Shown here: positions 8,481-32,875 of the stretch, in pieces
Numbering within the stretch: the stretch's first letter is position 1
Layout of the letters: the number at the start of each line of letters is the position of its first letter
DNA from: Gammaproteobacteria bacterium
GTDB lineage: Bacteria > Pseudomonadota > Gammaproteobacteria > UBA4575
Reading direction: 5' to 3'
NCBI GenBank assembly: GCA_963662355.1
Contig: OY759361.1
Span: forward strand, 615,834-679,833
Length of the DNA stretch: 64,000 bases
Notes under the pieces: generated by a model
Database searches by the model: none
What the model saw: the letters and a program-made list of their open reading frames with translations, nothing else
Told to the model about the DNA's origin: nothing
Made by a program: the position numbers and the translations under genes

Positions 8481-8501
8481 ACGTATGGCCGCTGAGGCGG
8501 C

Positions 8502-16551: not shown

Positions 16552-17655
16552 CTACTGCTCTACGATCGAGTAACTCGTACTACGTCCCCCGCCAAGGTTC
16601 TTCTTGAGGGCGCCACGTTCAGCCAGATCCTTAATATCACGTGATGCTGTGTCTTGTGAGCATTTCGCGATTTTGGCCCATTTTGAACTGGTCAATTTGC
16701 CCTCGAAGCCATCGAGTAACTTGTTCATAACTTTTATTTGTCGGTTATTGAGGGGCTCTTTTGCGAACCGATCCCAGAACCTTGCCTTAGCCATGACTGC
16801 GTCTAGGGTTTCCGTGCTTCCTTTGATTGCCCGATGCAGGCATCCAAGGAACCACTCCTGCCAGCGCGTAACATCCATGTCGCCCTTCTGTGTCCATTCG
16901 AGAGCATGGTAGTAGTCCTCACGTTCGGCCCTTATTTGTGAAGACATGCTGTAGAAGCGTTGCTGGGCCTTCTCGGACCGTGCAAGAGCCATATCCACTA
17001 TCGCGCGGGCGATGCGGCCATTTCCATCATCGAACGGATGGATCGTTACAAACCACAAGTGCGCCAATGCGCCAACAAGTAAGGGGTGCGCATCTCCAGG
17101 GTTGTTAAACCACGTTAAGAATCGCGCCATCTCATCTGCGAGGCGCGCAGCCGGCGGAGCCTCGTAGTGGACTTTCTCGCGGCCCATGGGCCCTGATACC
17201 ACTTGCATCGGTCCGTCACGGTCATCGCGCCAAGCGCCAGTAATTATTCTGGCCATACCACTGCGACCTGTGGGGAAGAGGGCGGCATGCCAGCCGTGCA
17301 GCCGCTCCTCAGTTAACAGCTCATCAAATTTCCCGGTCGCATCGAGCATCATCTCAACGACGCCTTCAACGTCCCTGTCGGCCGGCACGAGCCCGGCAAT
17401 GTCCATTCCAAGCCGGCGCGCGATGGAGGATCGGACCTGGTCCGCATCGAGCTGTTCGCCTTCAATCTCGCTCGACTTGATGACCTCTTCTGTAAGGGTT
17501 CGAAGATGCGCTTCCTTTCGCAGGTCAAAACCCAAGGCTTCCATCTTGCCCAGCAAGCGCCCTTGTTCATGGGATACCGTGGCAAGCAGTTTTGAAAGCC
17601 GCCCCTCATCCCATCTTAAATTCGGCCATTGATCCTTTTTCCACAGGTAGGTCAT
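16552..17655 (-). CDS. Fic-family protein (AMPylase-type), class II, with C-terminal winged-helix region
   Basis: Fic motif HPFDDGNGRIARA (HxFx[D/E]GNGRxxR). N-terminal inhibitory-helix motif SSEIEG matches [S/T]xxxE[G/N]. GC is visibly lower than in the flanking core genes. Confidence 0.9.
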   Translation of the reverse strand: MTYLWKKDQWPNLRWDEGRLSKLLATVSHEQGRLLGKMEALGFDLRKEAHLRTLTEEVIKSSEIEGEQLDADQVRSSIARRLGMDIAGLVPADRDVEGVVEMMLDATGKFDELLTEERLHGWHAALFPTGRSGMARIITGAWRDDRDGPMQVVSGPMGREKVHYEAPPAARLADEMARFLTWFNNPGDAHPLLVGALAHLWFVTIHPFDDGNGRIARAIVDMALARSEKAQQRFYSMSSQIRAEREDYYHALEWTQKGDMDVTRWQEWFLGCLHRAIKGSTETLDAVMAKARFWDRFAKEPLNNRQIKVMNKLLDGFEGKLTSSKWAKIAKCSQDTASRDIKDLAERGALKKNLGGGRSTSYSIVEQ

Positions 17656-19120: not shown

Positions 19121-20233
19121 TCAGATCGCAGGCGTGCTCACCTTCATGTTCCTGAGCATGTCCGGTTTGACGGTATTTGAGGGGGAGATCGCACCGGTCG
19201 GACATCGGTCCACACAGGCAAGACACCGGATACACTCCTTCTCATCGATGTAGAGCGAGTTGTAGTACAGGCCGGAAGTATGCGCGGGGTCCACGCGCAC
19301 ATAGCCCACGACTTCGTCATTTTCACCCAGTACGAGGTCTGAAATCTCAACGATGCAGTTTTCCATCGGCTTGACAAGCAGGCACTCATCGCACAGTACG
19401 CATTTTGAATTGTTGATCACGGGTGCCGGGGAACTCGCATCTTCAAACTTGTCGAAATAGATGCGCTCCCGTGCAAGTCCGGCTTTCGCCAGCACGGAAA
19501 CTGCGGCATCCACCATCGGGGGTGGCCCACAAAGATACGCCCTCGATTGGCTGACATCAAAGCTTCCATCCCTGACATGGGCACGTTCAAAATGCTCGGT
19601 CACCAGCCCTCTCGGGCCGGCCCAGTCACTGTCTTGCGGCTCTACCGAAAGAACGTTCACATGCTCAAACCGGTAATCCTTGTTCCATTTCCGCTTGATC
19701 GATTCGATTTCATCCTGGCAGTACAGATCCGCCTGCGTCCTGGCGCCGTACAGGAACAGGGCATCCCGCCTCACGCGACGGTTGGCGGCATGCTCAAGGA
19801 TCGCCAGGAGTGCGCTCAGGCCGCTTCCGCCGGCAATGCACACCATCGGGTCATCGGACGCATCAAGCACGAACTGTCCAAGCGGTCCGGTCAGGGTAAC
19901 GGGTTCCCCGGTCCGGTCTGTCCTGAACAGCCAGCCTGAAAACTCTCCGCCGTGGATCAGTTTGACGAAAAACGTATGCTGGCCCACCGCCTCGTTTTCG
20001 GGGGCACGGGCAAATGAATAGGCACGCGGCTTGCTCAGGCTCGGAGTCGCCAGGGTCGCGTATTGCCCTGCGATACCGTTCAAGGGGCTGGACGGCTGAT
20101 CGCATTGCACGACCAGGCGCATCGTGTCATACGTGAGTTTCCGGGTGGCGGCGATGACGCCCTGGCTGGCCTTGACCCGGCTGTGGTGAATCCGGGGATC
20201 CGCTACCGGCAGGCTTTGAAGCTGGGCGCTCAA
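19121..20233 (-). CDS. FNR-type flavin reductase fused to a C-terminal dicluster-ferredoxin-like domain
   Basis: FAD motif RAYSFA, NAD(P) motif GGSGLSALLAI and YLCGPPPMV. The C-terminal region has CVLCDEC...C and CIRCLACVDRCP (CxxCxxCxxxCP). Confidence 0.85.
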   Translation of the reverse strand: MSAQLQSLPVADPRIHHSRVKASQGVIAATRKLTYDTMRLVVQCDQPSSPLNGIAGQYATLATPSLSKPRAYSFARAPENEAVGQHTFFVKLIHGGEFSGWLFRTDRTGEPVTLTGPLGQFVLDASDDPMVCIAGGSGLSALLAILEHAANRRVRRDALFLYGARTQADLYCQDEIESIKRKWNKDYRFEHVNVLSVEPQDSDWAGPRGLVTEHFERAHVRDGSFDVSQSRAYLCGPPPMVDAAVSVLAKAGLARERIYFDKFEDASSPAPVINNSKCVLCDECLLVKPMENCIVEISDLVLGENDEVVGYVRVDPAHTSGLYYNSLYIDEKECIRCLACVDRCPTGAISPSNTVKPDMLRNMKVSTPAI

Positions 20234-20262
20234 TTGAACCTCCTTATCCAGGCCGTTGCCGG

Positions 20263-22410
20263 CTAAGCCGCTTCAGCCCGTGCTTTTTCGACCTGTGCAA
20301 GGCATGAATAGAACGAGGGACTCCAGCCAATATCCGTCAGCTCTTCCGAGATCAGGGCGTTCGCATTCACCCCGCCCGGCGTATTGCTGCCCTTGAACTG
20401 CTTCTGGGTGCTGCATACCCCGGGAAGCAGGCCGTCGATGATCACGGCATGCGCGTACGTCTCCCCGCGGTCATTGTACAGGCGGCACAGATCGCCGTCC
20501 TCGATGCCGCGTTCGAAGGCGTCTTCGGGGCACAGTTCCACGGTGGGCCTGGACATCATCGCCTGCAGCCTGGGCACGGTCTGGAACGAATCACCGATGA
20601 AGTAGTGCGGCGCGTTGCTCAGCACCTGAAGCGGGAATTTTTTCCTGCGTTCATAGTTCTCCTGGCCTTCCTCCTCCGGCAGGTATGTGGGCAGGGGGGA
20701 CTGGCCCTGGTTCTTGATTTCCTCGGACCAGATGTTGATCTTCCCCGTCTCCGTGGGCCAGCCGAGTTTCAGCCAGTCCCGGTTCGGCGAATCGACGTTG
20801 CAGCGCATCCAGCCATTCTCCTTGAGTCCCTGCATCGTGATGCCTTCCATGCCGGGGTGTCCCTCATCGCAGATGATCTCCTTGATCATGTCCTCGTCCG
20901 ACTGCTCGAACGTATCCTCGTCATAGCCCATTTTCCTGGCCAGCCTCCTGAACACTTCCGTGTTGCACAGGCTCTCCCCGAGGGGCTGGATACAGGGCTG
21001 GCTCATGTTGTAGATGTAGTGGCCCCAGGGGGCATGCAGGTCCCAGCGTTCCAGTTGCGTATCGGCCGGCAGCACGATGTCCGCATACAGGCAGGTGTCG
21101 GTCCACACCGGGTCATGCACCGCAACGAAGAGATCGTCGCGCATCAGGCCCTTGCGGACGTTGGTGGTGTTCGGTGCACAATTGGCGGGATCCGAGTTGT
21201 ACACGAACAGGGACTTGATCGGTGGATCGAGCGGGTCGCCGTTCATGTCCCGGTGATCCGCCAGCGCGCGCCCGATCTGCACCATGTTGATGGTACGCTT
21301 GGACGCCCGGTCACCCAGGTCCGGCCGTTGCAGCTTGCCGAGCTGCAGGCGCATCCAGTTTTCCTCACCGGTCCAGCCCAGGTACCCCCCGCATTTTTCA
21401 CGCCACGCACCGGTGATGCAGGGCAAGAGCATGACGGCCCGACAGGTCTGGCCTGAGTTCCTGTGCCGGTTCAGGCCCCAGCCGGTGCGGATAGTCGTTT
21501 TCCTGCTCGCCGCGTACGTCCTGGCAAGCTTTTCGATCTCCGAAGCCTTGATGCCCGTTATGCTGGACACTTTCTCCAGGGGCCATTTCGGGAGCTCGTC
21601 TCGTATCAGCTGTTCCCAGCCATGGGTGTACTGTTTCAGGAATGCCTCATCATGCAGTCCGGCCTCCACAATGATTTTCATCATTCCCAGCGCCAGGGCG
21701 GCATCCGTCCCCGGGCGCGGCTGGATGTGCCAGTCCGCAAATTCGGTGGTGCGTGTCTTTCTGGGGTCGATCGCGACGATCGTGGCACCGCGCTCCCTGG
21801 CTTCCTCCACGAACGGGATCAGGTGCACCCCCGTGCTGACGATGTTGTTCGCCCACAGGATCACCAGGTCGGCATCCGGGATGTCCTCGGTGCTCGGGCC
21901 ATCTGCCAGCCCGTAGGTGTAGATGTGTGTCCAGATTCCTGCCCAGGCACAGATGGACTGGTCAAGCCTTGCGGCTTCCATCTTGTTCCAGAAGCGCTGG
22001 TCCATGCCCCAGAAACCGATCAGCCCCAGCGTGCCCGAATAGGAATACGGCTGTACGGCTTCCGGCCCATACTCGGCAATCACTGACTTGAAATTGTCCG
22101 TGATGGTATCCAGGGCCTCATCCCAGGAGATTCTTTCGAATCTTGCCCCCGGCCCTTTTGGCCCGACGCGCTTGCGGGGATAAAGGACCCGGCTGTCGTT
22201 GTAGACCAGGTCCAGGTAGTGATTGACCTTGTTGCACAGATACCCGCGTGTGATGGGGTTGGTCGGGTCACCCTCCACGCGAACGGCTTTGCCGGATGCA
22301 TCATCTACAGTGACCAGCATCGAGCAACCGTCCGGGCAGTCATGGGGACACACCACATGGTGCTGGGAATGTCCGGCAGGTGGTTCAGGTCGAACAGCGT
22401 GTGTGCCCAT
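20263..22410 (-). CDS. Cytoplasmic molybdopterin (bis-PGD, DMSO-reductase superfamily) oxidoreductase
   Basis: 715 aa. N-terminal Fe-S motif CPHDCPDGC...C. Typical Mo-bisPGD blocks (ISWDEALD, DPRKTRT, PGTDAALALGM) and a C-terminal barrel. No twin-arginine signal peptide. Confidence 0.9.
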   Translation of the reverse strand: MGTHAVRPEPPAGHSQHHVVCPHDCPDGCSMLVTVDDASGKAVRVEGDPTNPITRGYLCNKVNHYLDLVYNDSRVLYPRKRVGPKGPGARFERISWDEALDTITDNFKSVIAEYGPEAVQPYSYSGTLGLIGFWGMDQRFWNKMEAARLDQSICAWAGIWTHIYTYGLADGPSTEDIPDADLVILWANNIVSTGVHLIPFVEEARERGATIVAIDPRKTRTTEFADWHIQPRPGTDAALALGMMKIIVEAGLHDEAFLKQYTHGWEQLIRDELPKWPLEKVSSITGIKASEIEKLARTYAASRKTTIRTGWGLNRHRNSGQTCRAVMLLPCITGAWREKCGGYLGWTGEENWMRLQLGKLQRPDLGDRASKRTINMVQIGRALADHRDMNGDPLDPPIKSLFVYNSDPANCAPNTTNVRKGLMRDDLFVAVHDPVWTDTCLYADIVLPADTQLERWDLHAPWGHYIYNMSQPCIQPLGESLCNTEVFRRLARKMGYDEDTFEQSDEDMIKEIICDEGHPGMEGITMQGLKENGWMRCNVDSPNRDWLKLGWPTETGKINIWSEEIKNQGQSPLPTYLPEEEGQENYERRKKFPLQVLSNAPHYFIGDSFQTVPRLQAMMSRPTVELCPEDAFERGIEDGDLCRLYNDRGETYAHAVIIDGLLPGVCSTQKQFKGSNTPGGVNANALISEELTDIGWSPSFYSCLAQVEKARAEAA

Positions 22411-22432
22411 GGGCGCACTCCTTTTCGTGTTG

Positions 22433-23614
22433 TCAGGCCGAAGCCGTGTGGTGGGGGACGGACTCTTCCAGTTCCTTGATTCCGCTCTCCCGGTTTTCTT
22501 TCCTGGTCAGCTCCAGCTCCTCCGGGGTGGCGTATTTTTCATCCCATTCCTTGAGCATGGGAACCATCACTTTAAAAAACAGGGGAGGGATCCATGCGAT
22601 CACCGTCATCGTCAGGTACCCGAAGGGGCACTGCGGGTCGTCCGGATACGCCTTGAGGTCCTGGTAGCGGCTGCTGTCGGCATGGTGCGCCCCGTGACGG
22701 CCGAGATTCAGCAGAATCCAGTTGCCCCAGGCATTATTGCTGGAGAAGGTCACCCTCGGGGTAATCGGTTGGCCTTCTTCCCGGACCAGCCCGTAATGGG
22801 AGAAAAAGTTAAGCCCTTCCAGGATGAACTTGGCATAGGCGATCGCCAAAAGGTAGGCCAGAAAACACACCCAGCCGCCACCGATGATGACCAGCGCCAT
22901 CACCAGGGCGCCTCGCAGCCAAGCCTGCACGATCCGGTTCCCGAGTGAGAACGCAGAGTGGCCGGCATCGTTCAGCCTGCGCTTTTCAACGTCCCAGCCG
23001 CTCTTCCACTGGGTCCATGTGCCGACCGTTTGAAAATGATAAAAATGGATGCCCCGTATGGGCGTCACCGCGTCTTGCTCGGGAAAGCCCAGGTTCTTGT
23101 GATGACCGTAGACATGCTCCACGGCAAAGTTGGTGCCGAACATCAACGCGAAGACCCACTCCCCGATCTTCGTGTCCACGATGTCGTCGGTACGTGAAAC
23201 CAGTTCATGCCCCATGACGATGCCTTGCACACCCAGGATGATCCCGAGTGACAGCGCGGCGCCCGAGTAGTGATACCAGGCGTTCTCACCGCGAACCGCC
23301 AGGGCATCGTATCCGAACTGTTCGAGTGTGAATTTCCCGACACCCAGCAGGTCTGCCGCGCTGAATGCCCAGATAAAGGTCAACAGGGCGATGACCAGGA
23401 ACAGGGAGATCGAGTATACGATCGCATCGCAGATCCAGCCAAAACCGTAACGGGGCTCCGAATTGTCCTCCCTGCTCAGCAGTTCGCCTCCGACCCCTGC
23501 AATGAACATGAACGCAACCCCGAACCACATCCACCAGCCTCCAACGATGAAGCTCGCGGCGGTACCCAAGGTCACAATCCAGTTCAGCCATCCGAACTTT
23601 AGATATTTCCACAT
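22433..23614 (-). CDS. AlkB-type integral-membrane di-iron hydroxylase / fatty-acid-desaturase-superfamily protein (divergent)
   Basis: Start trimmed to MWKYLKF (ATG 23612-23614, preceded by GAGGA). The His boxes align with AlkB: HELVSR (versus HELGHK), EHVYGHH, NFFSHYG and LGRHGAHHA. Several TM segments. Confidence 0.85.
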   Translation of the reverse strand: MWKYLKFGWLNWIVTLGTAASFIVGGWWMWFGVAFMFIAGVGGELLSREDNSEPRYGFGWICDAIVYSISLFLVIALLTFIWAFSAADLLGVGKFTLEQFGYDALAVRGENAWYHYSGAALSLGIILGVQGIVMGHELVSRTDDIVDTKIGEWVFALMFGTNFAVEHVYGHHKNLGFPEQDAVTPIRGIHFYHFQTVGTWTQWKSGWDVEKRRLNDAGHSAFSLGNRIVQAWLRGALVMALVIIGGGWVCFLAYLLAIAYAKFILEGLNFFSHYGLVREEGQPITPRVTFSSNNAWGNWILLNLGRHGAHHADSSRYQDLKAYPDDPQCPFGYLTMTVIAWIPPLFFKVMVPMLKEWDEKYATPEELELTRKENRESGIKELEESVPHHTASA

Positions 23615-23915
23615 AGTCGTTTCCTCAAGCCAGATCAAAAAACATGTTACAGCGTCAAAAAACAACTTTTGCCGGGTTCTTTCGGCCCTCCTGGCGTTTG
23701 CGATACGGGTTACCAATACTCCTGTTTCTGAATGCATCGGCTTTTTTAGGCGCTACCACTAGCGTACCCATTTTGGGCTAGAAAAGTCAACTACTGCATG
23801 GTATGCTTTCGCGGGGCTAAGAATAAAGCCTGATAAAGAATATAACAACAAGGCGCCTGTCGCCAAAAGAGGGTTTGCCAGATGAAAAACCCCGCAGTGA
23901 TATAGAGGAGCTCTG

Positions 23916-24704
23916 ATGCCAGGCGATGTGTCTGCTGGTAACGGAGTGCTTCTGGAAACCAATGACATTTCCCTGTCGTTCAAGGGCGTGACAGCCCTTT
24001 CCAATGTCAGCCTGAAGGTTCACAAGGGTGAAATCTGTGCCCTGATCGGTCCGAACGGCGCCGGCAAGAGTTCACTGCTTAACGTGATTAACGGGGTGTA
24101 CCGACCCCAGCACGGCGAGGTGGTTTTCGACGGCAGGCATTTCCAGAAGATCTCGCCCCTGGTCGCGGCACAACGCGGGATCGGGCGAACCTTCCAGCAC
24201 AATGCATTGTTCGAGAGGCTGACGGTCCTGGACAACGTCCTGGCCGGACTTGCGCGGTGCAGCAAGACCACGTTCCTGGAGAATATTTTCGGTGTCGGCC
24301 GGGACCGTGCTGAAAAAAGGCAGTTTCTTGCACTGGCCAACGGGATCATCTCCTTTCTCAACCTTGAGGAACATGCTGACACGGTTGTCTCGACCCTTCC
24401 GTTCGGTACTCAAAAGCGGGTCGACCTGGCCCGTGCGCTGGTATCCGAACCCAAGCTCCTGCTGCTGGACGAACCGATGGCGGGAATGAACCAGGAAGAA
24501 AAACAGGAGATGAGCCGCATCGTCTCGGAGGTAAATTCGCGCTTTGAAATCACCATCGTGCTGATCGAGCATGACATCGGCATTGTCATGGGACTGGCAC
24601 ATCGCATCGTGGTGCTGGACTACGGGCGCAAGATTGCCGATGGAATGCCGGAGCACGTGCGCAATGACCCGGTCGTGATCAAGGCCTACCTTGGCGAAGA
24701 CTAG
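23916..24704 (+). CDS. ABC transporter ATP-binding protein, LivG type
   Basis: Walker A GPNGAGKSS, signature region and Walker B LLLLDEPMAG. GAGGAG ribosome-binding site upstream. Confidence 0.9.
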   Translation: MPGDVSAGNGVLLETNDISLSFKGVTALSNVSLKVHKGEICALIGPNGAGKSSLLNVINGVYRPQHGEVVFDGRHFQKISPLVAAQRGIGRTFQHNALFERLTVLDNVLAGLARCSKTTFLENIFGVGRDRAEKRQFLALANGIISFLNLEEHADTVVSTLPFGTQKRVDLARALVSEPKLLLLDEPMAGMNQEEKQEMSRIVSEVNSRFEITIVLIEHDIGIVMGLAHRIVVLDYGRKIADGMPEHVRNDPVVIKAYLGED

Positions 24705-24729
24705 GCACAAGCAAACTTTGGAGTCGTAG

Positions 24730-25605
24730 ATGATACTGGAAGTGATATTGGGGGGACTGCTGGCGGGAGTACTGTATTCGTCCGTGGCGCTCGGGTTCGT
24801 GCTCATCTACAAGGCATCCGGGGTATTCAACTTCGCACAGGGCGCGATGGTACTGTTTGCGGCCTTGATTTACGTGACACTTGTCGATGCCGGCGCCCCG
24901 TTCTGGCTCTCGCTGTTCGCGGTGCTGGTGGTGATGATTGCGTGTGCGGTGCTGATCGAGCGCTTCATGCTGCGTCCCATGGCAAACCGCGATCCCATCG
25001 TCCTGTTCGTGGCCACCTTGGGACTCAGTTTCATCATCGAGGGCGTGGCGCAGATGACGATGGGAACTGACGTCCACATCCTGGAGCTCGGGATTGCGGA
25101 TGGCGCCATTCAGATCGGCAATCTGTGGCTGAGTGAATTTGACCTGTTTGCCACCGCAATGGCTATCCTGCTGGTCATCATCATTACCTTTGTTTTCAAC
25201 ATCACGCGCATAGGCATCTCGCTGCGCGCGGTCGCCGATGACGTGTTGGCGGCGCAATCGATTGGCATTCAGCTGCCGTACGTCTGGCGCATTGTATGGA
25301 GCGTGGCCGGATTCATCGCGCTGGTCGCCGGGCTGCTTTGGGGAGCCCGTCAAGGGGTCCAGTTTTCGCTGACCCTGTCAGCACTCAAGGCATTGCCGGT
25401 GCTGATCATAGGTGGTTTCTCCTCCATGAGCGGGGCCATCATTGCCGGGCTGCTGGTCGGGGCATGTGAAAGCCTGGCTGATTTCTACCTGGGCCCGATC
25501 TTTCGTGGCAGCGTATCGAACTGGTTCGTATACGTGCTGGCGGTCGCCTTCCTGCTGTTCAGGCCGGCCGGCCTTTTTGGCGAACGTGCGATCGAGAGGG
25601 TTTGA
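24730..25605 (+). CDS. Branched-chain-amino-acid-type ABC permease, LivH type
   Basis: 291-aa polytopic membrane protein with the typical LivH N-terminus (GGLLAGVLYSSVALGFVLIYKASGVFNFAQG). Confidence 0.9.
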   Translation: MILEVILGGLLAGVLYSSVALGFVLIYKASGVFNFAQGAMVLFAALIYVTLVDAGAPFWLSLFAVLVVMIACAVLIERFMLRPMANRDPIVLFVATLGLSFIIEGVAQMTMGTDVHILELGIADGAIQIGNLWLSEFDLFATAMAILLVIIITFVFNITRIGISLRAVADDVLAAQSIGIQLPYVWRIVWSVAGFIALVAGLLWGARQGVQFSLTLSALKALPVLIIGGFSSMSGAIIAGLLVGACESLADFYLGPIFRGSVSNWFVYVLAVAFLLFRPAGLFGERAIERV

Positions 25606-25608
25606 GCC

Positions 25609-26685
25609 ATGTCAGACATCAAGAGCCTAGCTGAATCCGCCACGGTCATGAGTCGGCCGGGCAAGCAGAACGAGGGGATGAAGCGAACTGCGCTCTGGGT
25701 GCTGGCCATTGCCGCGTCCTTTTTGCCGCTCAGCTTCAGTGACTACTGGATCAGCTCGATCATCATTCCGATGCTGGTGATGGGCCTGGCGGGCGTTGGA
25801 GTCAATTTTCTGATGGGGTACGCCGGATGTGTTTCGATCGGATCTGCTGCCTTCATGGCGGTGGGCGCCTTTTCGGCATACAACCTGATCCTGCGCGCCC
25901 CGATGTTGCCGTTGCCGGTCGTCATCGTCCTGGCAGGACTGATTGCGGCACTGTTCGGAGTCTTGTTTGGGCTGCCCAGCCTGCGGATAAAAGGGTTCTA
26001 CCTGATCGTGTCGACCCTTGCCGCGCAATTTTTCTTCGAATGGCTGTTTACGAATTTCGCCTGGTTCTGCAACTATAACCTGTCCCTGACCATCACGGCC
26101 CCGCGCCTGGAGATCTTTGGCTGGAATCTCAAGACGGTCCACGGCCGTTACCTGATGGTGATCGTTACCACGCTCACCCTGGTCGCGCTGGCGTACAGCA
26201 TCGCCCGCAGTCGCCTCGGTCGGGAATGGATGGCCGTCAGTGACATGGAAACCTCCGCTACCGTCACGGGGATCAGGGTTGGCAGCCGCAAGCTCCTAGC
26301 CTTTGGCATCAGCTCTTTTTATTGCGGGGTCGCAGGCGTACTCTGGGCATTCTGTTACCTGGGCACCAGCAACGCGCTGTCCTTCGACCTCGACAAGTCC
26401 TTTGAAATCCTGTTCATCGTGATCATAGGCGGCGCCGCGAACATCTTCGGCAACTTTATCGGTGCGGCCTTCATCGTCCTGACCCCCATATTTCTCACGC
26501 TGGCCGTGGTCGGCCTGGGGCTGACGGACTATGTCAATATCGGAACCCTCACGAACGTGCAGCGGGTGATATTCGGCGTCCTGATTATCTACATTCTGAT
26601 AAAAGAACCGGACGGCCTTTACAGGCTGTTGCAGCGCATCGCCGCAGCGCTGTTCAACCGGGTTCGACGACCGGGTACCGCCTGA
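25609..26685 (+). CDS. Branched-chain-amino-acid-type ABC permease, LivM type
   Basis: 358-aa polytopic membrane protein. The block GYAGCVSIGSAAFMAVGAF is typical of LivM. Confidence 0.9.
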   Translation: MSDIKSLAESATVMSRPGKQNEGMKRTALWVLAIAASFLPLSFSDYWISSIIIPMLVMGLAGVGVNFLMGYAGCVSIGSAAFMAVGAFSAYNLILRAPMLPLPVVIVLAGLIAALFGVLFGLPSLRIKGFYLIVSTLAAQFFFEWLFTNFAWFCNYNLSLTITAPRLEIFGWNLKTVHGRYLMVIVTTLTLVALAYSIARSRLGREWMAVSDMETSATVTGIRVGSRKLLAFGISSFYCGVAGVLWAFCYLGTSNALSFDLDKSFEILFIVIIGGAANIFGNFIGAAFIVLTPIFLTLAVVGLGLTDYVNIGTLTNVQRVIFGVLIIYILIKEPDGLYRLLQRIAAALFNRVRRPGTA

Positions 26686-26879
26686 TGAGGTTAATACCCT
26701 GCGCAGCACCGGACCTGCTGGGCACCATGATTGAACGTACGGGCCACCGGTGCCGGGGGGTTGGTGTCCCGTACACAACACACAAAGGAGGTGATACCAC
26801 GCGTATTTGCGCCTGCCGCCGTATCGCGGGACAGGATTCGACTAAATACACACACAAATAATTACGAGGAGAACAGACC

Positions 26880-28223
26880 ATGATTTTAAATCAACTCAAG
26901 TACACGCTGCTTGCCGCCGTACTGAGCCTTGCAAGCGTCCAGGCAGTACTGGCAGCCGGGGCGCACGAAGGGGAGCAATTCTACCCCCTGTTTACCTACC
27001 GGACCGGGGCCTACGCTAATGTTGGCACCTCAATCGTAGGTGGGCAGAAAGACTACCTGGTGTACCAGAACGAAACCCAGGGTGGGGTCAACGGTGTCAA
27101 GCACTACATGGTGGAGTGCGAAACCGCATACGATATCGACCGGGGCATTGAGTGCTTCGACCGGTATGTAAAAGGCCACGAAGGGGCTCCCACGGCCACG
27201 ATTACGAGCATGTCTTCAGGCCTGTTCGCAGCCACCGTGGAGAGGAACCGCGAGAACAAGATGCCGCATATGATCCCGGGTGGCGGTCAAGCTACCGCGA
27301 TTGACGGACGCTACAATGAATATCAGTTTTCAGTGATGTTTGACTACTGGAGACAGTCACAGGTTGTTGTTGAATACATTGCGCAGCGTCTGGGCGGTCA
27401 TGACAAACTCAAGGACCAGGTGATCGTCACGCTGTACCACGATTCCGGGTACGGTCGTGAAACCCTTGAACCCATGAAGATCCTGTCAGAGCAGTACGGC
27501 TTCAAAGATGTGCAGATTCCTGTCGCGCATCCGGGTGTTCAGCAAGAAGCGCACTGGCAACAGATTCGCAACGTGAAGGGTGACTGGGTGTATTACCGTG
27601 CCTGGGGCGCAATGACGCCTGTGGGCATCAAGACAGCCAAGCGCACGGGTTTCCCGGTAGATCACATAGTGGGTGATATCTGGTCCACCTCGGAAGATGA
27701 TGTACGTCCTGCAGGAGAGGCCGCAATCGGCTACACGGGAGTCAACATTTTCCCGCCGGGAACGGATTTCGAACTCCTCAAGAGGATCAAGGAGACCCTG
27801 TATGACGAGGGCAAGGGTGATCTCAAGGAGATGGAGCGATTCGGCACGGTGTACTACAACTTCGGTGTCATCACGTCATTGATCTATGCCGAGATGCTGC
27901 GTACCGGCCACGAGAAGTTTGGCAACAGACCCTTGAACGGCGAGGAAGCCAGGTGGGCGTATGAGCATATGGAAATCGACCAGGCGCGCATCGATGAACT
28001 GGGTGCAAACGGTTTGCTGGCTCCACTCAAGCTCTCACGCTGTAACCACCAGGGTGAAAAAATCCAGGCCAAAGTGGTCCAATGGACCGGTGACGGCTGG
28101 GATTCAACAGACTGGATAGAGATCGATACGCAGATGTTCGTGCCTACCTTCACTGCAAGAGCTGCAGCCCAGGCACAGGAACAGGGTGTACCGAAACGTG
28201 ACCTGCCCGAGTGCGAAGCCTAG
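26880..28223 (+). CDS. Periplasmic substrate-binding protein (type I PBP, LivK-like long subfamily)
   Basis: Signal peptide ...SVQAVLAAG. 447 aa, placed between the permease genes and livF-type ATPase gene of the same transporter. Confidence 0.8.
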   Translation: MILNQLKYTLLAAVLSLASVQAVLAAGAHEGEQFYPLFTYRTGAYANVGTSIVGGQKDYLVYQNETQGGVNGVKHYMVECETAYDIDRGIECFDRYVKGHEGAPTATITSMSSGLFAATVERNRENKMPHMIPGGGQATAIDGRYNEYQFSVMFDYWRQSQVVVEYIAQRLGGHDKLKDQVIVTLYHDSGYGRETLEPMKILSEQYGFKDVQIPVAHPGVQQEAHWQQIRNVKGDWVYYRAWGAMTPVGIKTAKRTGFPVDHIVGDIWSTSEDDVRPAGEAAIGYTGVNIFPPGTDFELLKRIKETLYDEGKGDLKEMERFGTVYYNFGVITSLIYAEMLRTGHEKFGNRPLNGEEARWAYEHMEIDQARIDELGANGLLAPLKLSRCNHQGEKIQAKVVQWTGDGWDSTDWIEIDTQMFVPTFTARAAAQAQEQGVPKRDLPECEA

Positions 28224-28251
28224 ACGTTAGACCCGGATAACCGTTTCGAGC

Positions 28252-29013
28252 ATGAACGATTTTCTTAATCTCTCTAACGTCGAGGTCCACTACGGCCAGG
28301 CCATTCTTGCCGTACAGAACGTGACCATGGCGGTCGAACAGGGATCGATCGTATCCCTGTTTGGCGCCAATGGGGCGGGGAAGTCCACGACCCTGAAGGC
28401 GATCTCCAAACTTCTCGAACAGGAGAGAGGCGAGGTCACCAAAGGTGAAATCACCTGGCGCGGGGAGTCTCTTGACCGTCTCTCCGCTTCCGACCTCGTT
28501 GCCAAGGGCGTGGTTCAGGTACTGGAAGGCCGACACGTTTTCCCGCAGCTTACTGTGGAAGAAAATCTCAAGGCCGGCGCATTCGTGCGACGGCCCAGCC
28601 GCGCCCAGATGGACAGGAATCTGGAGCAGATATACGGATGGTTTCCGCGTCTCAAGGACATACGCAGAAACAAGGCGGGGCTAACCTCGGGCGGTGAACA
28701 GCAGATGCTCGCCATTGGACGTGCGTTAATGACCCGGCCTGTCCTGGTTCTGCTGGACGAGCCTTCGATGGGTCTTGCACCCGTCATCATCCATGAAATT
28801 TTCGACATCATTAAGGTGATGAACCGTGAAAACAATGTCAGTTTTCTGATTGCCGAGCAAAACGTCGGCCTTACCATGAAATACGCCGACTACTGTTACA
28901 TCCTGGAAAACGGCAGTGTCGCCGTATCCGGCGAGGTCGACACGCTGGCAGCCCGTGATGATATCAAGGAGTTTTATCTGGGCTCGAACAAAGGCAACGG
29001 GGAAACACCATGA
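28252..29013 (+). CDS. ABC transporter ATP-binding protein, LivF type
   Basis: Walker A GANGAGKST, signature TSGGEQQML and Walker B VLVLLDEPSMG. Confidence 0.9.
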   Translation: MNDFLNLSNVEVHYGQAILAVQNVTMAVEQGSIVSLFGANGAGKSTTLKAISKLLEQERGEVTKGEITWRGESLDRLSASDLVAKGVVQVLEGRHVFPQLTVEENLKAGAFVRRPSRAQMDRNLEQIYGWFPRLKDIRRNKAGLTSGGEQQMLAIGRALMTRPVLVLLDEPSMGLAPVIIHEIFDIIKVMNRENNVSFLIAEQNVGLTMKYADYCYILENGSVAVSGEVDTLAARDDIKEFYLGSNKGNGETP

Positions 29014-29030
29014 CCGGCAAGCTGCTGCCT

Positions 29031-29090
29031 GAGGACGTACACGGCCTTGCAAGCTGCACGATGTTGGCAACCTAGATTTGAAAGAGGGGG
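29031..29090 (+). repeat. Degenerate direct copy of codons about 9-28 of the downstream hydrolase gene (partner copy at 29120-29181)
   Basis: Hand alignment of GTACACGG-CCTTGCAAGCTGCACGATGTTGGCAACCTAGATTTGAAAGAGG with GTGCACGGGCCTTACGAGCTGCACGATGTTGGCGACCTGGTTTTGGAAGAAGG. Offset 89-90 nt, one 1-nt indel. Confidence 0.7.
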
Positions 29091-29095
29091 ATACT

Positions 29096-30148
29096 ATGAG
29101 CGACAACAGCTACTACTCGCAGGAAGTGCACGGGCCTTACGAGCTGCACGATGTTGGCGACCTGGTTTTGGAAGAAGGCGGAACCCTGCGCGCCTGCCAG
29201 CTTGCCTACGCAACTTTCGGCAATCTCAATGCCGCCAAGGACAATGCCATCCTGATTCCCACTTGGTACTCCGGTACCAACAAGATCATGGAGCAGGTCT
29301 ATACCGGCCAGGGGCGCGCACTTGATCCGGACAAGTATTTCATCATTATCATCAACCAGATTGGCAGCGGCCTTTCTTCGTCGCCGCACAACACCCCCGC
29401 CCCCGGCGGGATGGGGAATTTCCCACCGGTGCGCATTGGCGACGATGTGCGGGCCCAGCACAAGCTGCTCACGGAAAAGTTCGGTATCGAGAGTCTGGCC
29501 CTGGTAATCGGTGGCTCGATGGGTGCGCAGCAGACCTACGAATGGGCCGTGCGCTATCCCGACATGGTCAAACGCATTGCCGCGATCGCCGGCACAGCGA
29601 AAAACTCCGACCATGATTTCCTGTTCACCGACACGCTGGCCGATGCCATCACGTCCGATCCCGGCTTCAACGGCGGCTTCTATCGATGCCCCTCCGATGT
29701 GCGGGAAGGCCTGTTGCGCCACGCCAAGCTGTTTGCGGTGATGGGCTGGAGCACGGAATTCTACCAGCAGGGTCGCCCGAGAGCGCTGGGATTTTCGTCG
29801 ATCGATGATTTCATCATGAATTTTATGAATGGCTATTTCAGCGTCATGGATCCAAATAACCTGCTCTGCATGGCGCGGAAGTGGCAGCACGGCGACGTCA
29901 GCCGCATGACAGGGGGCAATCTCAAGGAAGCGCTAGGACGCATCACCGCCCAGGCGTTTGTCATGCCGATCAACGAGGACATGTTCTTCCCGCCGCAAGA
30001 TTGCGAAGCGGAGCAGAAAATGATTCCCAACAGTCAGTTCCGTGTCCTGCACAGTATCGACGGACACCTGGCACTGTTTGGCGCCGATCCAGAATTTCTA
30101 GACCAACTCGACAAGAATCTGGGAGAACTGCTGGCGATTGAAGTCTAG
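29096..30148 (+). CDS. Alpha/beta-fold hydrolase, MetX (homoserine O-acetyltransferase)-like family; candidate esterase
   Basis: Start set at MSDNSYY (ATG 29096, after AGAGGGGG). Nucleophile elbow GGSMGA and the overall MetX-like layout. Confidence 0.8.
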   Translation: MSDNSYYSQEVHGPYELHDVGDLVLEEGGTLRACQLAYATFGNLNAAKDNAILIPTWYSGTNKIMEQVYTGQGRALDPDKYFIIIINQIGSGLSSSPHNTPAPGGMGNFPPVRIGDDVRAQHKLLTEKFGIESLALVIGGSMGAQQTYEWAVRYPDMVKRIAAIAGTAKNSDHDFLFTDTLADAITSDPGFNGGFYRCPSDVREGLLRHAKLFAVMGWSTEFYQQGRPRALGFSSIDDFIMNFMNGYFSVMDPNNLLCMARKWQHGDVSRMTGGNLKEALGRITAQAFVMPINEDMFFPPQDCEAEQKMIPNSQFRVLHSIDGHLALFGADPEFLDQLDKNLGELLAIEV

Positions 30149-30187
30149 AACAAACACACTCACTTTTAACGAATAGGAGGAAACCCT

Positions 30188-31801
30188 ATGACTAGTTCCA
30201 AAACAACTGACTTTGACGCAGTTATTGCTGGCGCCGGTTTCTCCGGAATGTATATGCTGCATAGCCTGCGTGACAAGCTCGGCCTCTCGGTGCGGGTTTT
30301 AGAGAAAGGCGGCGGCGTCGGTGGCACGTGGTACTGGAATCGCTATCCGGGCGCGCGCTGCGATTCCGACAGCTACATTTACTGCTACATGTTCGACAAG
30401 GACCTGCTGCAGGAATGGGAGTGGTCCGAGCGCTATCCCCGCCAGCCCGAGGTTCTGAAGTACCTAGAACACGTGGCCGATCGTTTCGACCTGCGCAAGG
30501 ATATCCAGTTCGATACGACCGTCAGCGCGGCGAGCTTCGACGAGGAGGCCAACTGCTGGACGATCCGTACTGGCGATGGCAACACCGTCACCGCGAAATA
30601 CTTCATCAGTGCAATCGGGGCCATATCCGAACCGTTCATGCCGGACATCAAGGGCCTGGAGACATTCGAGGGCACGCAGTACCACACCTCGCATTGGCCG
30701 CACGGCGGTGTTGATTTCACTCACAAGCGGGCTGCCGTCATCGGTACCGGCGCGACTGCAGTGCAGGTCATTCCGGAAATCTCCGAGCAGGCGAAGCACG
30801 TTACCGTGTTTCAGCGTACGCCCAACTTCTGCTGGCCCGCGCGCCATGGCAAGGTGGACCCCGAGGTAGTAGAGTCCCGCAAGGCCGACTATGACGGGAT
30901 TCGCGAACGTCTTCAAAACTCGTTCTTCGGCTTTGAACTGGCCTTTATAGAAAAGGGGGTGCTCGATGCCACGGAGGAGGAGCGCAAGCAAGTGTGGGAT
31001 GAAATGTGGTATCGGGGCGGCTTCCCTTTCTGGATTGCCAACTACATCGACGTGTTCTTCAACAAGGAGGCCAACGACGAATGCGTCAAGTACATGGCCG
31101 AAAGGATCCGCGAAAAAGTGAAGGACCCGGAGACCGCAGAAAAGCTGATTCCGAAGAACCATCACTACGGTACCAAGCGTCAGCCGCTGGAAAGCAACTA
31201 TTACGATTCATTCAACAAGCCGAATGTCGTGCTGGTGGACGTAAATGAAACACCGATCGAGGAGATCACCCCGCAGGGGGTCCGCACCAGCGATCAGGAG
31301 TATGAATTCGATATCATCGTGTTCGCCACCGGCTTCGACGGCATGACCGGCCCGCTGAAAAAGATCAACCTCAGCGGCCGCGATGGCCAGCAGCTGTCAG
31401 AGAAATGGAGCGACGGGCCGCACACCTACCTGGGCCTGGCCATGGCGGGATTCCCCAACATGTTCACTATCACCGGTCCAGGCAGCCCCTCGGTACTAAG
31501 CAACGTGCCGGTGTCGATCGAGCAGCATGTCGAGTGGATCACGAGTTGTATCGACTACATGGAAAAGAACAATGTTGCGACGATCGAGGCGACGGCCGAG
31601 GCCGAGGACCAATGGACCGCGCATGTTGCCGAAGTGGTCAAAGATTCGCTGATGATCACAGCCAACTCCTGGTACATGGGTGCCAACATTCCCGGCAAGC
31701 CGCTGGTGTTCATGCCTTACCTTGGCGGGGTCGGGGCTTACCGGCAAAAGTGCGACGAGGTCGCATCGAAGGGGTACGAGGGGTTTGCCTTAGCCAGTTA
31801 G
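30188..31801 (+). CDS. Type I Baeyer-Villiger monooxygenase (FAD/NADPH-dependent)
   Basis: GAGFSG Rossmann motif, GGTWYWNRYPGARCD, BVMO fingerprint FEGTQYHTSHWP (FxGxxxHxxxW[P/D]), and a second Rossmann motif GTGATA. Confidence 0.9.
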   Translation: MTSSKTTDFDAVIAGAGFSGMYMLHSLRDKLGLSVRVLEKGGGVGGTWYWNRYPGARCDSDSYIYCYMFDKDLLQEWEWSERYPRQPEVLKYLEHVADRFDLRKDIQFDTTVSAASFDEEANCWTIRTGDGNTVTAKYFISAIGAISEPFMPDIKGLETFEGTQYHTSHWPHGGVDFTHKRAAVIGTGATAVQVIPEISEQAKHVTVFQRTPNFCWPARHGKVDPEVVESRKADYDGIRERLQNSFFGFELAFIEKGVLDATEEERKQVWDEMWYRGGFPFWIANYIDVFFNKEANDECVKYMAERIREKVKDPETAEKLIPKNHHYGTKRQPLESNYYDSFNKPNVVLVDVNETPIEEITPQGVRTSDQEYEFDIIVFATGFDGMTGPLKKINLSGRDGQQLSEKWSDGPHTYLGLAMAGFPNMFTITGPGSPSVLSNVPVSIEQHVEWITSCIDYMEKNNVATIEATAEAEDQWTAHVAEVVKDSLMITANSWYMGANIPGKPLVFMPYLGGVGAYRQKCDEVASKGYEGFALAS

Positions 31802-31833
31802 CCGCGCATTGGCCGCACCCTCGGGTGTGTCAG

Positions 31834-31870
31834 GGCCGGGGCCGCAGCGATGACCACTGCGGCCCCGGCC
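31834..31870. terminator. Strong GC hairpin between convergent genes (14-bp perfect stem, 9-nt loop)
   Basis: GGCCGGGGCCGCAG-cgatgacca-CTGCGGCCCCGGCC, 33 nt after the BVMO stop. It lacks a clear U-tract. Confidence 0.5.
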
Positions 31871-31952
31871 GGTCACGGGTGACAATGGTCTGGAATCATC
31901 AATTTTTAATATTGATGCGTGTCTCGTGCGGGCGCCTTCAGGCCGACAGCGC

Positions 31953-32519
31953 TCATTCGGCACCTGTCACCCAGGTCTCATCCAGGCCAGGTAACCCGTC
32001 GATGCTTGTCTTGTTTTTGCCCCTTCGGTATGCAGCGATTTCCTGTGGGCTCCTGACTTCCACCCACCGTTTGATGTCATTGCGATGAGACTTGAACTTC
32101 ATAAGCGGCACACCAAATCCACATGAATCACTGATACGTTCTACCCGCACTCGTATGATCGATCTTGATCCCTTGTAGGATGGGAACTTTGTCAGCAGGG
32201 AGTCGTGTTCCCTGTCGCCCGGGAAGAGCGTTTCACCTTTGCCGTGCAGTCGCACGATCTTGGGCGCTCCCTCAAATGCACAAAGCATGATGAGTATCCG
32301 TTTGTTTTCCCTGAGGTGGGCAACCGTTTCGATTCCACTGCCTGTAAAATCCAGATAGGCGACGGTATGCGGGTCGATTATGCGGAACGTGTCACCGCCT
32401 TTCGGAGAGCAGTTGATATGCCCGTCCTGTGACAGCGGTGCCGTGGAAACAAAGAATACCTTCTGCCGCTGGATCCATTTAGCCAGACTCGAATCAATTT
32501 GATCGTATAGCTTGCTCAT
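31953..32519 (-). CDS. Pyridoxamine 5'-phosphate oxidase-family (split-barrel flavin-binding) protein
   Basis: 188 aa. FFVSTAPLSQDGHINCSPKGG...LDFTGSGIETVAHL is typical of the PNPOx-like fold. Confidence 0.75.
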   Translation of the reverse strand: MSKLYDQIDSSLAKWIQRQKVFFVSTAPLSQDGHINCSPKGGDTFRIIDPHTVAYLDFTGSGIETVAHLRENKRILIMLCAFEGAPKIVRLHGKGETLFPGDREHDSLLTKFPSYKGSRSIIRVRVERISDSCGFGVPLMKFKSHRNDIKRWVEVRSPQEIAAYRRGKNKTSIDGLPGLDETWVTGAE

Positions 32520-32661
32520 AGTACAGATTCCGCCTGAATGACCTGATTAGCTTGTTATTGAATGCCGCCCTGGACTGTCAGCGGTCATTCGTGCACTACA
32601 TAATGTGGAAATCAGGGCAAACATTTTACACACAGCCGGTCGACCTGGAAAGCACGACAGT

Positions 32662-32701
32662 GGAAAAAGCAAAGGTGAGCGGGCTGTGCGCAGCCCTCAC
32701 C
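32662..32701 (-). terminator. Hairpin plus T-tract readable as an intrinsic terminator on the minus strand
   Basis: GGTGAG(cg)GGCTG-tgcg-CAGCCCTCACC gives an 11-bp stem with a 2-nt bulge. On the minus strand it is followed directly by TTTGCTTTTTCC. Confidence 0.3.
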
Positions 32702-32875
32702 GAAAGTGACTGTTTATTTTCAAGGCTAAAACCCGAAGTCAAGGCCAGGGGTGTGCAAATCCGGCATGTGTGTTCACCCATTTCCCGCCAGATCCTGCAT
32801 ACACGGTTGACAATTGACTGTACAGCTTTACCATTAAAACTGTTACATTAGAACAACATAACCTGAGCGCGAACT

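Follow-up and report, generated by a model that had tools for sequence, protein, structure and literature searches.

An AlkB-like hydroxylase gene recurrently placed beside a molybdenum enzyme and its FNR-ferredoxin reductase: a possible module for the catabolism of methylated sulfur oxides

Introduction

Bacterial consumption of dimethyl sulfide (DMS) and dimethyl sulfoxide (DMSO) controls the climate-active sulfur that leaves the ocean, and the genes dmoA, tmm and ddhA explain only part of it. NADH-dependent activities reducing dimethyl sulfone (DMSO2) and DMSO have reportedly been found in Hyphomicrobium and Arthrobacter methylotrophs, with no gene assigned to them. Among membrane di-iron hydroxylases, AlkB is said to hold its iron in a site of nine histidines, as seen in cryo-EM structures of 2023 and in earlier mutagenesis. 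The AlkB-type enzyme MdpA hydroxylates a heteroatom-bound methyl group, after which a hemiacetal dehydrogenase and a tert-butyl formate esterase act (PMC4517660). None of the known DMS-degrading enzymes is an AlkB-type membrane enzyme or is coupled to a cytoplasmic molybdenum (Mo) reductase (PMC13352529, PMC6548844), and recent research into DMS pathways deals with flavin monooxygenases (PMC13352529). Here we analyzed a stretch of 64,000 nucleotides (nt), referred to as the window, from contig OY759361.1 of a gammaproteobacterial assembly (GCA_963662355.1). In the window, a gene for an AlkB-like protein is followed by one for an Mo/W-bis(pyranopterin guanine dinucleotide) (Mo-bisPGD) enzyme and one for a ferredoxin-NADP+ reductase (FNR)-type protein with a ferredoxin-like C-terminus (FNR-Fer4). 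The literature that we searched held no description of this triad, as the original prediction made from the DNA letters had supposed, and no paper that we found describes an AlkB-type gene coupled to an Mo-bisPGD enzyme. We found that the AlkB-type hydroxylase is recurrently recruited beside either an Mo/FNR-Fer4 unit or a reductase of the BisC family.

Results

The three genes form a tight, co-oriented unit on the minus strand, as had been predicted. They encode the AlkB-like membrane di-iron hydroxylase (22433-23614; 393 amino acids (aa), Pfam FA_desaturase), the cytoplasmic Mo enzyme (20263-22410; 715 aa, ATG start) and the FNR-Fer4 reductase (19121-20233; 370 aa, TTG start). The gaps between them are 22 nt (22411-22432) and 29 nt (20234-20262), and both hold a Shine-Dalgarno sequence, AAAGGAG and AAGGAGG, respectively. 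The longest open reading frame (ORF) for the AlkB-like gene runs from 22433 to 23737 on the minus strand and would encode 434 aa. We preferred the internal ATG at 23614, the start originally chosen, because GAGGAA lies just ahead of it and the resulting product begins with MWKYL, as do all homologues of 392-403 aa. Scans showed no promoter-like sites beyond chance between the triad genes and no inverted repeats or terminators beyond chance in the flanking intergenic regions. A sigma-70-like promoter candidate (23839-23866, minus strand; TTGGCG-16-TATATT, 9/12 matches, with an upstream TG) was found in the 301-nt divergent region between the triad and an ATP-binding cassette (ABC) transporter operon; it is a weak candidate, as the number of promoter-like sites in this region was not above that in shuffled sequence. 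The layout fits a single operon, short of proving one.

When metagenomes were searched with an alignment of AlkB-like family members, 41 loci were obtained and pooled with loci found earlier; 18 loci had at least 4 kb on both sides. An Mo-bisPGD gene was present at most 1.4 kb from the AlkB-like gene in 13 of these 18 well-flanked loci, an FNR-type reductase in 12 and a MetX-like hydrolase in 9. The triad order itself recurred on independent contigs, at 57-97% AlkB identity (L001, L011/L012, L013-L015, L094 and L095). Because the order is the same on independent contigs and an Mo gene is nearby in 13 of the 18 loci, the triad is more than a chance arrangement. The original prediction had proposed conservation of the neighborhood as a check, and the coupling of the AlkB-like and Mo genes was indeed found well beyond the source genome. 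Gaps within the module are 22-43 nt long with ribosome-binding sites, and the MetX-like hydrolase adjoins the AlkB-like/Mo genes in 12 loci of the family. In L142, some 6 kb separate the Mo/reductase pair from the AlkB-like gene. Sponge-symbiont lineages, Candidatus Porisulfidus among them, also yielded related loci. Modules of the clade with an AlkB identity of about 57-59% have further genes: one for an S-adenosylmethionine-dependent methyltransferase of the WHD_Rv2258c type (L001, 3132-4190; contig of P0009), one for a TetR regulator and one for a porin, together with another copy of the ABC genes and the binding-protein gene.

The three complete genomes nearest to the window (OZ242168, OZ242278 and OZ244849) are gammaproteobacterial metagenome-assembled genomes of 2.0-2.1 Mb. 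Each carries a triad, with the Mo enzyme at 90-92% identity, and a second, paralogous pair elsewhere at 66-67% (L043, L060 and L089). About 2-4 kb upstream of this second, "housekeeping" pair, a very divergent AlkB-like gene was seen in at least nine loci (L089, 7157-9139; L033, L039, L043, L045, L051, L053, L060 and L085). Its product is 28-32% identical and has the boxes HELAH, AHVYNHH, NFLEHYG and RQADHH; the next gene encodes a conserved 235-aa protein without a Pfam match.

The Mo partner of the AlkB-like protein was of three kinds. Two are of the CPHDCPDxC cysteine type, at 58-92% and 38-39% identity, respectively. The third is a BisC-family S/N-oxide reductase without iron-sulfur (FeS) cluster, and the only reductase alongside it is an XylA-like 2Fe-2S/FNR protein (Fer2-FNR). 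BisC-family membership was clear in L100 and L124 (TIGR00509, 915-965 bits), and tblastn or N-terminal sequence suggests a BisC-type partner in L107, L112 and L113; L112 holds both kinds of Mo enzyme. Since a BisC-family enzyme replaces the Mo partner in these loci, the function shared by the Mo partners would most simply be the reduction of an S- or N-oxide.

The window reductase matched the Pfam models FAD_binding_6, NAD_binding_1 and Fer4. It belongs to the FNR family, with intact motifs at residues 70 (RAYSFA), 135 (GGSGLSA) and 235 (CGPPPM), and its FNR part scored 149-158 bits on the BenC and AntC models. The ferredoxin domain is of the 2x[4Fe-4S] kind. Its eight cysteines (C278, C281, C284, C293, C334, C337, C340 and C344) are 98% conserved among 57 orthologues, and the fourth Cys of the first motif has a non-canonical spacing. 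Thus the Pfam matches and the eight cysteines bear out the predicted FNR-type reductase with a Cys-rich, ferredoxin-like C-terminal domain. The further claim that the AlkB-like enzyme obviously draws its electrons from this fusion found no support.

Using the Mo enzyme as the query against one genome per species, we obtained 80 loci and tabulated the neighbors of the Mo gene in them. The FNR-Fer4 gene was directly downstream of the Mo gene in 57 of the 80, nearly all of which lack an AlkB-like gene; these 57 include essentially all gammaproteobacterial loci at 60% Mo identity or above. In L007, the two genes overlap by 1 nt. Because of this pattern we assigned the reductase to the Mo enzyme: the two make up a self-contained, NAD(P)H-linked two-gene unit, and the fusion belongs to the Mo enzyme. 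In sister clades, the AlkB-like gene is accompanied by Fer2-FNR, and in L009/L098 both kinds of reductase are present, in the order AlkB-like, Fer2-FNR, Mo, FNR-Fer4. The reductase pattern across loci suggests that each redox enzyme normally has its own reductase. In the island around the window triad, the only reductase alongside the AlkB-like gene is FNR-Fer4, with neither rubredoxin, rubredoxin reductase nor an XylA-type reductase there; the earlier statement that no rubredoxin is encoded agrees with the window ORFs that we examined, none of which was noticed to be one, although no search was aimed at rubredoxin. The FNR-ferredoxin (FNR-Fd) protein may therefore serve both enzymes in the window clade.

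Outside this group, the surroundings of the Mo gene differed. The betaproteobacterial Mo orthologues (52-59% identity; L063-L077 and L082) have no FNR-Fer4 gene, and folD, for methylene-THF dehydrogenase/cyclohydrolase, is directly 3' of the Mo gene in 19 loci (e.g., L082, 12117-12968). Mo homologues at about 40% identity are on plasmids of cultured Alphaproteobacteria, namely Thioclava plasmid p4 (L138) and Agrobacterium vitis pAt (L139), in an operon that is controlled by, and includes, an AraC regulator; alongside the Mo gene it has genes for a separate 4Fe-4S ferredoxin (100 aa) and an FAD oxidoreductase as well as Moco genes (glp or moaA). These plasmid homologues offer a genetically tractable way into the function of the Mo family. 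The actinobacterial neighborhoods (L070 and L092) were uninformative.

The AlkB-like protein matched Pfam FA_desaturase (1.2e-18) and the solved AlkB structures (PDB 8f6t, 2.7e-36; 8sbb, 1.6e-32), and no NCBIfam model matched it. It is 26-30% identical to the solved AlkBs and to MdpA. A hydropathy scan gave hydrophobic segments at about 10-47, 64-82, 117-139 and 228-265 and an amphipathic stretch at 333-354, consistent with the AlkB topology. The family consists of about 170 clusters, nearly all of uncultured origin, and its alignment gave the signature HELTHR / EHVYGHH / NFFSHYG / LGRHGxHH. In the window protein EHVYGHH, NFFSHYG and LGRHGAHH are intact and box 1 reads HELVSR: residue 140 is a Ser in place of the second His of box 1, leaving eight of the nine canonical histidines, so that the protein departs from the nine-histidine pattern (HELxHK, EHxxGHH, NYxEHYG, LQRHSDHH). 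HELVSR is found throughout the window clade (P0001-P0005) and arose independently in a second clade (P0016, P0017, P0020, P0024 and others); P0103 has a Gly at this position, whereas the rest of the family has HELTHR, and AlkB has HELGHK. Given this conservation, the substitution is probably functional. We also considered the loss of the box-1 His as a signature of triads and rejected it, as L001/P0011 and L094/P0014 keep HELTHR and are still triads. Relatives at 35-37% identity are on plasmids of cultured degraders in classical hydrocarbon clusters, adjoined by a Fer2 reductase and AraC in Hydrocarboniclastica and by a GMC oxidoreductase, an aldehyde dehydrogenase and an acyl-CoA ligase in Polaromonas.

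The Mo enzyme carries the Pfam domains Molybdop_Fe4S4, Molybdopterin and Molydop_binding, which place it in the Mo/W-bisPGD (MopB) superfamily. The cysteines of its FS0 motif CPHDCPDGC...C (C21, C25, C29 and C59; CX3CX3C...C) are invariant. So is Cys154, the predicted Mo ligand, which aligns with Cys141 of acetylene hydratase and with the Ser of BisC; the residue after it is Ala, compared with His in formate dehydrogenases. Ser152, suggested as the ligand by an alignment with DorA, was rejected because it is not conserved. The predicted absence of a twin-arginine translocation (Tat) leader was confirmed in the window protein and its homologues. A periplasmic location was rejected on this ground and because the extra length of the 763-aa homologues is internal or C-terminal, not N-terminal.

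Every NCBIfam score of the Mo enzyme was far below its cut-off, so that assignments as a nitrate, formate, DMSO, thiosulfate or arsenate enzyme were rejected. The possibility, raised with the original prediction, that it falls in a well-characterized family was thus not borne out. On TIGR00509 (BisC/DorA/TorA) it scored 218 bits against a cut-off of 1017.55, and with its Cys ligand and FeS cluster it is not a member. On the NasC model it scored 219 bits against 1100, outside the assimilatory nitrate reductases, and no nitrite reductase or nitrate transporter genes were near the Mo gene in the window or in the 80 loci. Similarity to SoeA/SorA was not above the generic family level. The closest solved structure was acetylene hydratase (2e7z, 1.7e-53), matched in two local stretches only. 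The position of its catalytic Asp13 is Pro26 in the Mo enzyme, with Asp27 one residue on, so that the Mo enzyme has neither the catalytic Asp in register nor the full-length similarity of an acetylene hydratase. More than 100 clusters (at 90% identity) are about 67% identical to the window enzyme, from marine sulfur oxidizers, sponge symbionts and freshwater Burkholderiales.

Sulfur and C1 genes were found next to the AlkB-like genes of other loci. In L009/L098 and L104, the methanethiol oxidase gene mtoX (SBP56) and SCO1/MauG genes are divergent from the AlkB-like gene, and in L100 SCO1/MauG occupies the equivalent divergent position. L115 has FccAB (flavocytochrome c sulfide dehydrogenase) and a rhodanese/beta-lactamase-fold fusion of the persulfide dioxygenase (PDO) type. 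Flavoproteins resembling sulfide:quinone oxidoreductase (SQR), TusA and DsrE are also near AlkB-like genes of sister clades, and genes for methanofuran and tetrahydromethanopterin (H4MPT) biosynthesis adjoin the triad in L094.

The window triad is part of a larger island (19121-34276). The original prediction had seen the triad and overlooked the rest: an ABC importer, a hydrolase, a Baeyer-Villiger monooxygenase (BVMO) and a flavin monooxygenase. Divergent from the triad, on the plus strand, is an ABC system of the HAAT family, identified with NCBIfam models, with an ATPase like LivG/UrtD (23916-24704), permeases like LivH/UrtB (24730-25605) and LivM/UrtC (25609-26685) and an ATPase like LivF/UrtE (28252-29013). 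Its genes are syntenic with the triad in L001, L013-L015 and L095. The periplasmic substrate-binding protein (26880-28223, plus strand; 447 aa, Peripla_BP_6) had no NCBIfam match; it matched PDB 4ru0 (1.6e-134), which has no usable annotation, and its plasmid homologues are annotated generically.

The MetX-like alpha/beta hydrolase follows (29078-30148, plus strand; PRK07581, 497.6 bits against a cut-off of 332). It is 57-62% identical to hydrolases whose genes come immediately after a BVMO gene in Methylibium petroleiphilum PM1 and in Rhodococcus jostii RHA1. Because its homologues take this place in cultured degraders, we read it as a putative hydrolase of small (thio)esters. In the window, too, it adjoins a type I BVMO (30188-31801, plus strand; 537 aa), the arrangement of BVMO and ester hydrolase genes known from ketone-degrading bacteria. 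This BVMO matched phenylacetone monooxygenase (1w4x, 9.5e-187) and is 43% identical to the BVMO ahead of the hydrolase homologue in M. petroleiphilum PM1. On the PM1 plasmid (L140, 249-13062), the BVMO/PRK07581 pair is about 8 kb from an annotated alkane 1-monooxygenase gene accompanied by two rubredoxin genes and a LuxR-type regulator; the product is 26% identical to the window AlkB-like protein, and this region is probably the mdpA cluster, which encodes the methyl tert-butyl ether (MTBE) monooxygenase. The island continues with a PPOX-type FMN-binding protein (31953-32519, minus strand; 188 aa, a weak NCBIfam match), syntenic in L011 and L013, and an FMN monooxygenase of the NtaA/DmoA family (32876-34276, plus strand; 466 aa, TIGR03860, 544.8 bits against a cut-off of 279.7), syntenic in L014 and L015. 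The latter is equally close to LadA (3b9n, 9.9e-148) and DmoA (6ak1, 1.8e-143). Directly 3' of it, an ORF at 34284-34820 (plus strand) encodes 178 aa without a Pfam or NCBIfam match, which could be a flavin reductase or other partner of the DmoA/LadA-like enzyme.

Outside 19.1-34.3 kb, the window holds housekeeping genes; bioB and bioF are 3 kb beyond the island. A stretch of lower GC content (0.54) immediately downstream of the triad region contains a gene for a Fic/DOC-family protein that has DUF4172 at its N-terminus and a helix-turn-helix-like region at its C-terminus (16552-17655, minus strand). A 474-aa ORF without a Pfam match is at 39172-40596 (plus strand). The part of the window with the lowest GC content (0.54-0.56) holds two adjacent outer-membrane beta-barrel/Surface_Ag_2-like ORFs of 368 and 410 aa (6021-8539, minus strand), which may have been acquired horizontally.

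Discussion

We tentatively propose, at less than an even chance, that the island serves the catabolism of a methylated heteroatom compound that is small and polar, most likely an S-oxide of the DMSO/DMSO2 type, by NAD(P)H-dependent reduction followed by hydroxylation of the S-methyl group by the AlkB-like enzyme. The divergent HAAT-type ABC system would import the polar methylated oxide, with DMSO or dimethyl sulfone as the foremost candidate. Electrons from NAD(P)H would pass through the FAD of the FNR module and its two [4Fe-4S] clusters to the [4Fe-4S] cluster and the Cys-ligated Mo of the Mo enzyme, which would strip the oxygen atom from the sulfoxide or sulfone to give a thioether. The DMSO2/DMSO couple has a potential low enough for a ferredoxin-type chain. 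The AlkB-like enzyme, with O2 and two electrons, would then hydroxylate the heteroatom-bound (S-)methyl group; in the window clade the same FNR-Fd protein might supply these electrons, given that there is no second reductase gene nearby. The hemithioacetal would fall apart into methanethiol and a C1 unit. Alternatively, it might be oxidized to a thioformate ester and cleaved by the PRK07581 hydrolase, in parallel with the route for MTBE by MdpA and a formate esterase. The BVMO and the DmoA/LadA-like monooxygenase would be accessory oxygenases acting on related substrates. In favor of this proposal are the Mo/FNR-Fer4 unit, its conserved coupling to the AlkB-like gene, the BisC-family enzymes that can replace the Mo partner, the methanethiol, sulfide and C1 genes of sister loci, and the place of hydrolase homologues behind BVMOs.

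A broader form of this proposal is more doubtful: the AlkB-like family as a whole might be a widespread thioether (DMS) monooxygenase fed by a Cys-ligated Mo S-oxide reductase, with one reductase for both enzymes in the window clade. In Methylophaga thiooxydans, the first DMS-degrading enzyme is unknown (PMC6548844). During growth of this organism on DMS, the value for a "fatty acid desaturase domain protein" went up from 10 to 1359 and that for an NAD-binding oxidoreductase from 12 to 618, and mtoX, SCO1/MauG, rhodanese-PDO and SQR rose too (PMC6548844). Going by gene descriptions, this DMS-induced set is the same as that around the AlkB-like family, which we regard as a lead toward the proposed S-oxide pathway.

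Several points weigh against the S-oxide proposal. When we looked for a link to MDMS009_226 of M. thiooxydans, the cluster and homology search returned uncultured sources only. The sulfur context comes only from sister clades at 46-53% AlkB identity, and homologues of mtoX, SCO1/MauG, FccB, SQR-like flavoproteins and rhodanese-PDO are absent from the 64-kb window. With only eight of the nine AlkB histidines, the window clade may have a different chemistry. Characterized reductases of DMSO, trimethylamine N-oxide (TMAO) and biotin sulfoxide have a Ser ligand, whereas the Mo enzyme has a Cys ligand along with an FeS cluster; among solved structures it is closest to acetylene hydratase, a non-redox enzyme. 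Many Mo/FNR-Fer4 pairs sit in housekeeping surroundings with no AlkB-like gene, suggesting that the pair may have a more general role. An AlkB-type DMS monooxygenase would be partly redundant because a DmoA-like enzyme is already encoded in the window, and an ABC importer is not strictly required because DMSO crosses membranes.

An alternative that we consider unlikely is that the FNR-Fd protein is mainly the reductase of the AlkB-like enzyme and that the island carries out the sub-terminal oxidation of a hydrocarbon or ketone. The AlkB-like and LadA-like hydroxylases would lead to a ketone, the BVMO would convert it to an ester and the hydrolase would cleave the ester; the Mo enzyme would act on the product or substrate of the hydroxylase, as an O2-independent hydroxylase or dehydrogenase or as a hydratase like acetylene hydratase. 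The lack of another reductase gene near the window-clade triad fits this scheme, and BoxA shows that a Fer4-plus-FNR protein is able to reduce a di-iron oxygenase. However, FNR-Fer4 tracks the Mo gene and not the AlkB-like gene (57 of 80 loci), and wherever a Fer2-FNR is present it is the AlkB-like gene's own. Acetylene hydratase is the nearest solved relative of the Mo enzyme, but its catalytic Asp13 is out of register, and the substitution of a BisC-family enzyme is hard to square with a role on alcohols, alkynes or alkanes. Hydrocarbon degradation is the setting of the 35-37% relatives on the Hydrocarboniclastica and Polaromonas plasmids and of the BVMO/PRK07581 pairs in degradation regions of M. 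petroleiphilum and R. jostii, and the flavin monooxygenase matches LadA; the ABC importer, on the other hand, suits a polar substrate rather than a hydrocarbon.

It is improbable, in our estimate, that the oxide is of another kind: TMAO, reduced to trimethylamine and then N-demethylated by the AlkB-like enzyme, or an amino-acid or vitamin sulfoxide, for instance that of methionine or biotin, taken up by the HAAT transporter. The BisC-family enzymes of sister loci also score 665-713 bits on the TorA model, and BisC itself reduces free methionine-S-sulfoxide and biotin sulfoxide. HAAT transporters are classically amino-acid carriers, the MetX-like hydrolase is kin to methionine biosynthesis, NtaA-family enzymes cleave C-N bonds, bioB and bioF are close to the island, and the C1 context (FolD, H4MPT) is compatible with any demethylation. 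The recurrent neighbors, however, are specific to methanethiol and sulfide (mtoX, SCO1/MauG, FccAB and PDO-rhodanese) and not to amines, and no Tmm/Tdm/Dmm or methionine gamma-lyase genes were seen nearby.

That the genes share no pathway, the Mo/FNR-Fd pair being a general housekeeping or detoxifying oxidoreductase that became a chance neighbor of the AlkB-like gene in some lineages, seems very unlikely. Most pairs do lie among housekeeping genes (DinB, TraB/GumN, glycerate kinase and TolB-Pal), and triad genomes carry the second paralogous pair elsewhere; even that paralogue, however, has a divergent AlkB-like gene upstream in at least nine loci. The short gaps of 22-43 nt with ribosome-binding sites also speak against chance, as does the adjacent Mo gene in 13 of 18 AlkB-like loci, which involves three divergent Mo subfamilies and varied gene orders and therefore indicates repeated independent recruitment. 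Slightly less credible still is a self-powered desulfonation, in which the AlkB-like enzyme would alpha-hydroxylate an imported alkanesulfonate or sulfone and the Mo enzyme would oxidize the released sulfite, with electrons passing through FNR-Fd to NAD(P)+ or straight to the hydroxylase: a charged sulfonate would require the ABC importer, the pair is common in genomes of sulfur oxidizers beside SoxY, TusA and a YeeE-type transporter, sulfite oxidation with NAD(P)+ as the acceptor is favorable in thermodynamic terms and one reductase would suffice for the triad, but BisC-family reductases without FeS hold the same place in sister loci, similarity to SoeA/SorA does not exceed the generic family level and the betaproteobacterial orthologues stand alone beside FolD.

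If the DMSO/DMS pathway is true, it would provide new marker genes, a new reaction for the AlkB family and a first function for a large family of Mo enzymes. It would also mean that marine, sponge-associated, soil and lake bacteria have a route from DMSO(2) through DMS to methanethiol that is missed by dmoA, tmm and ddhA. Even with another substrate, an O2-dependent di-iron hydroxylase repeatedly paired with an Mo enzyme that removes oxygen atoms would be new to enzymology, as would an FNR-2x[4Fe-4S] fusion dedicated to an Mo-bisPGD enzyme. The parts are of known kinds; new are the module, the dedicated FNR-2x[4Fe-4S] partner and the proposed function. A survey of the MopB superfamily names no family of this kind in what a keyword search of it brought up (PMC10100899), and a BLAST-based survey would probably bin sequences of the window type with acetylene hydratase.

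Compared with AlkB, XylM and MdpA (the AlkBGT and XylMA systems), the window protein shares the FA_desaturase fold, His boxes 2 and 3 and the HYG motif, and by hydropathy its hydrophobic segments are consistent with six transmembrane segments. As in XylMA, a reductase of the XylA-like 2Fe-2S/FNR type is used in sister clades, and MdpA gives the precedent for hydroxylation of a methyl group on a heteroatom, with a formate-ester hydrolase acting later in the route (PMC4517660). Unlike AlkBGT, the window locus links the hydroxylase to an Mo-bisPGD enzyme and an ABC importer, and sister loci link it to methanethiol/sulfide genes; box 1 also differs from that of AlkB, being HELTHR in the family and HELVSR, with eight of nine histidines, in the window clade.

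The Mo enzyme resembles the acetylene hydratase of Pelobacter acetylenicus (2e7z) in its cytoplasmic location, size (727 aa for the hydratase), N-terminal [4Fe-4S] cluster and aligned Cys ligand. However, the similarity is local, the FeS motif is CX3CX3C and not CX2CX3C, and redox turnover is implied for the window enzyme by the NAD(P)H-linked reductase dedicated to it. With BisC, DorA and TorA the likeness is one of position and chemistry: BisC is a cytoplasmic Mo-bisPGD enzyme of oxygen-atom transfer, and members of its family occupy the equivalent place in sister loci, whereas the window enzyme differs by its FeS cluster and Cys ligand (BisC has Ser and no FeS) and needs its separate FNR-Fd partner. 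NasA, NasC and NarB are likewise cytoplasmic enzymes with a Cys ligand and an N-terminal [4Fe-4S] cluster, and NAD(P)H electrons reach them by way of a flavoprotein or ferredoxin, but the window partner is of the FNR type and not of the Pyr_redox_2 type. The reductase shares with BoxA and with the class IB reductases BenC/XylA an FNR module and FeS domains of the kind that pass NAD(P)H electrons to an oxygenase; its order, FNR and then 2x[4Fe-4S], is the reverse of that in BoxA, its conserved partner is the Mo enzyme, and it lacks a plant-type 2Fe-2S domain. With DmoAB, Tmm, DdhABC, DsoABCDEF and the two-component flavin monooxygenases of A. baylyi, finally, the window locus would share its proposed role, the channeling of DMS or DMSO into the metabolism of methanethiol, C1 units and sulfide.

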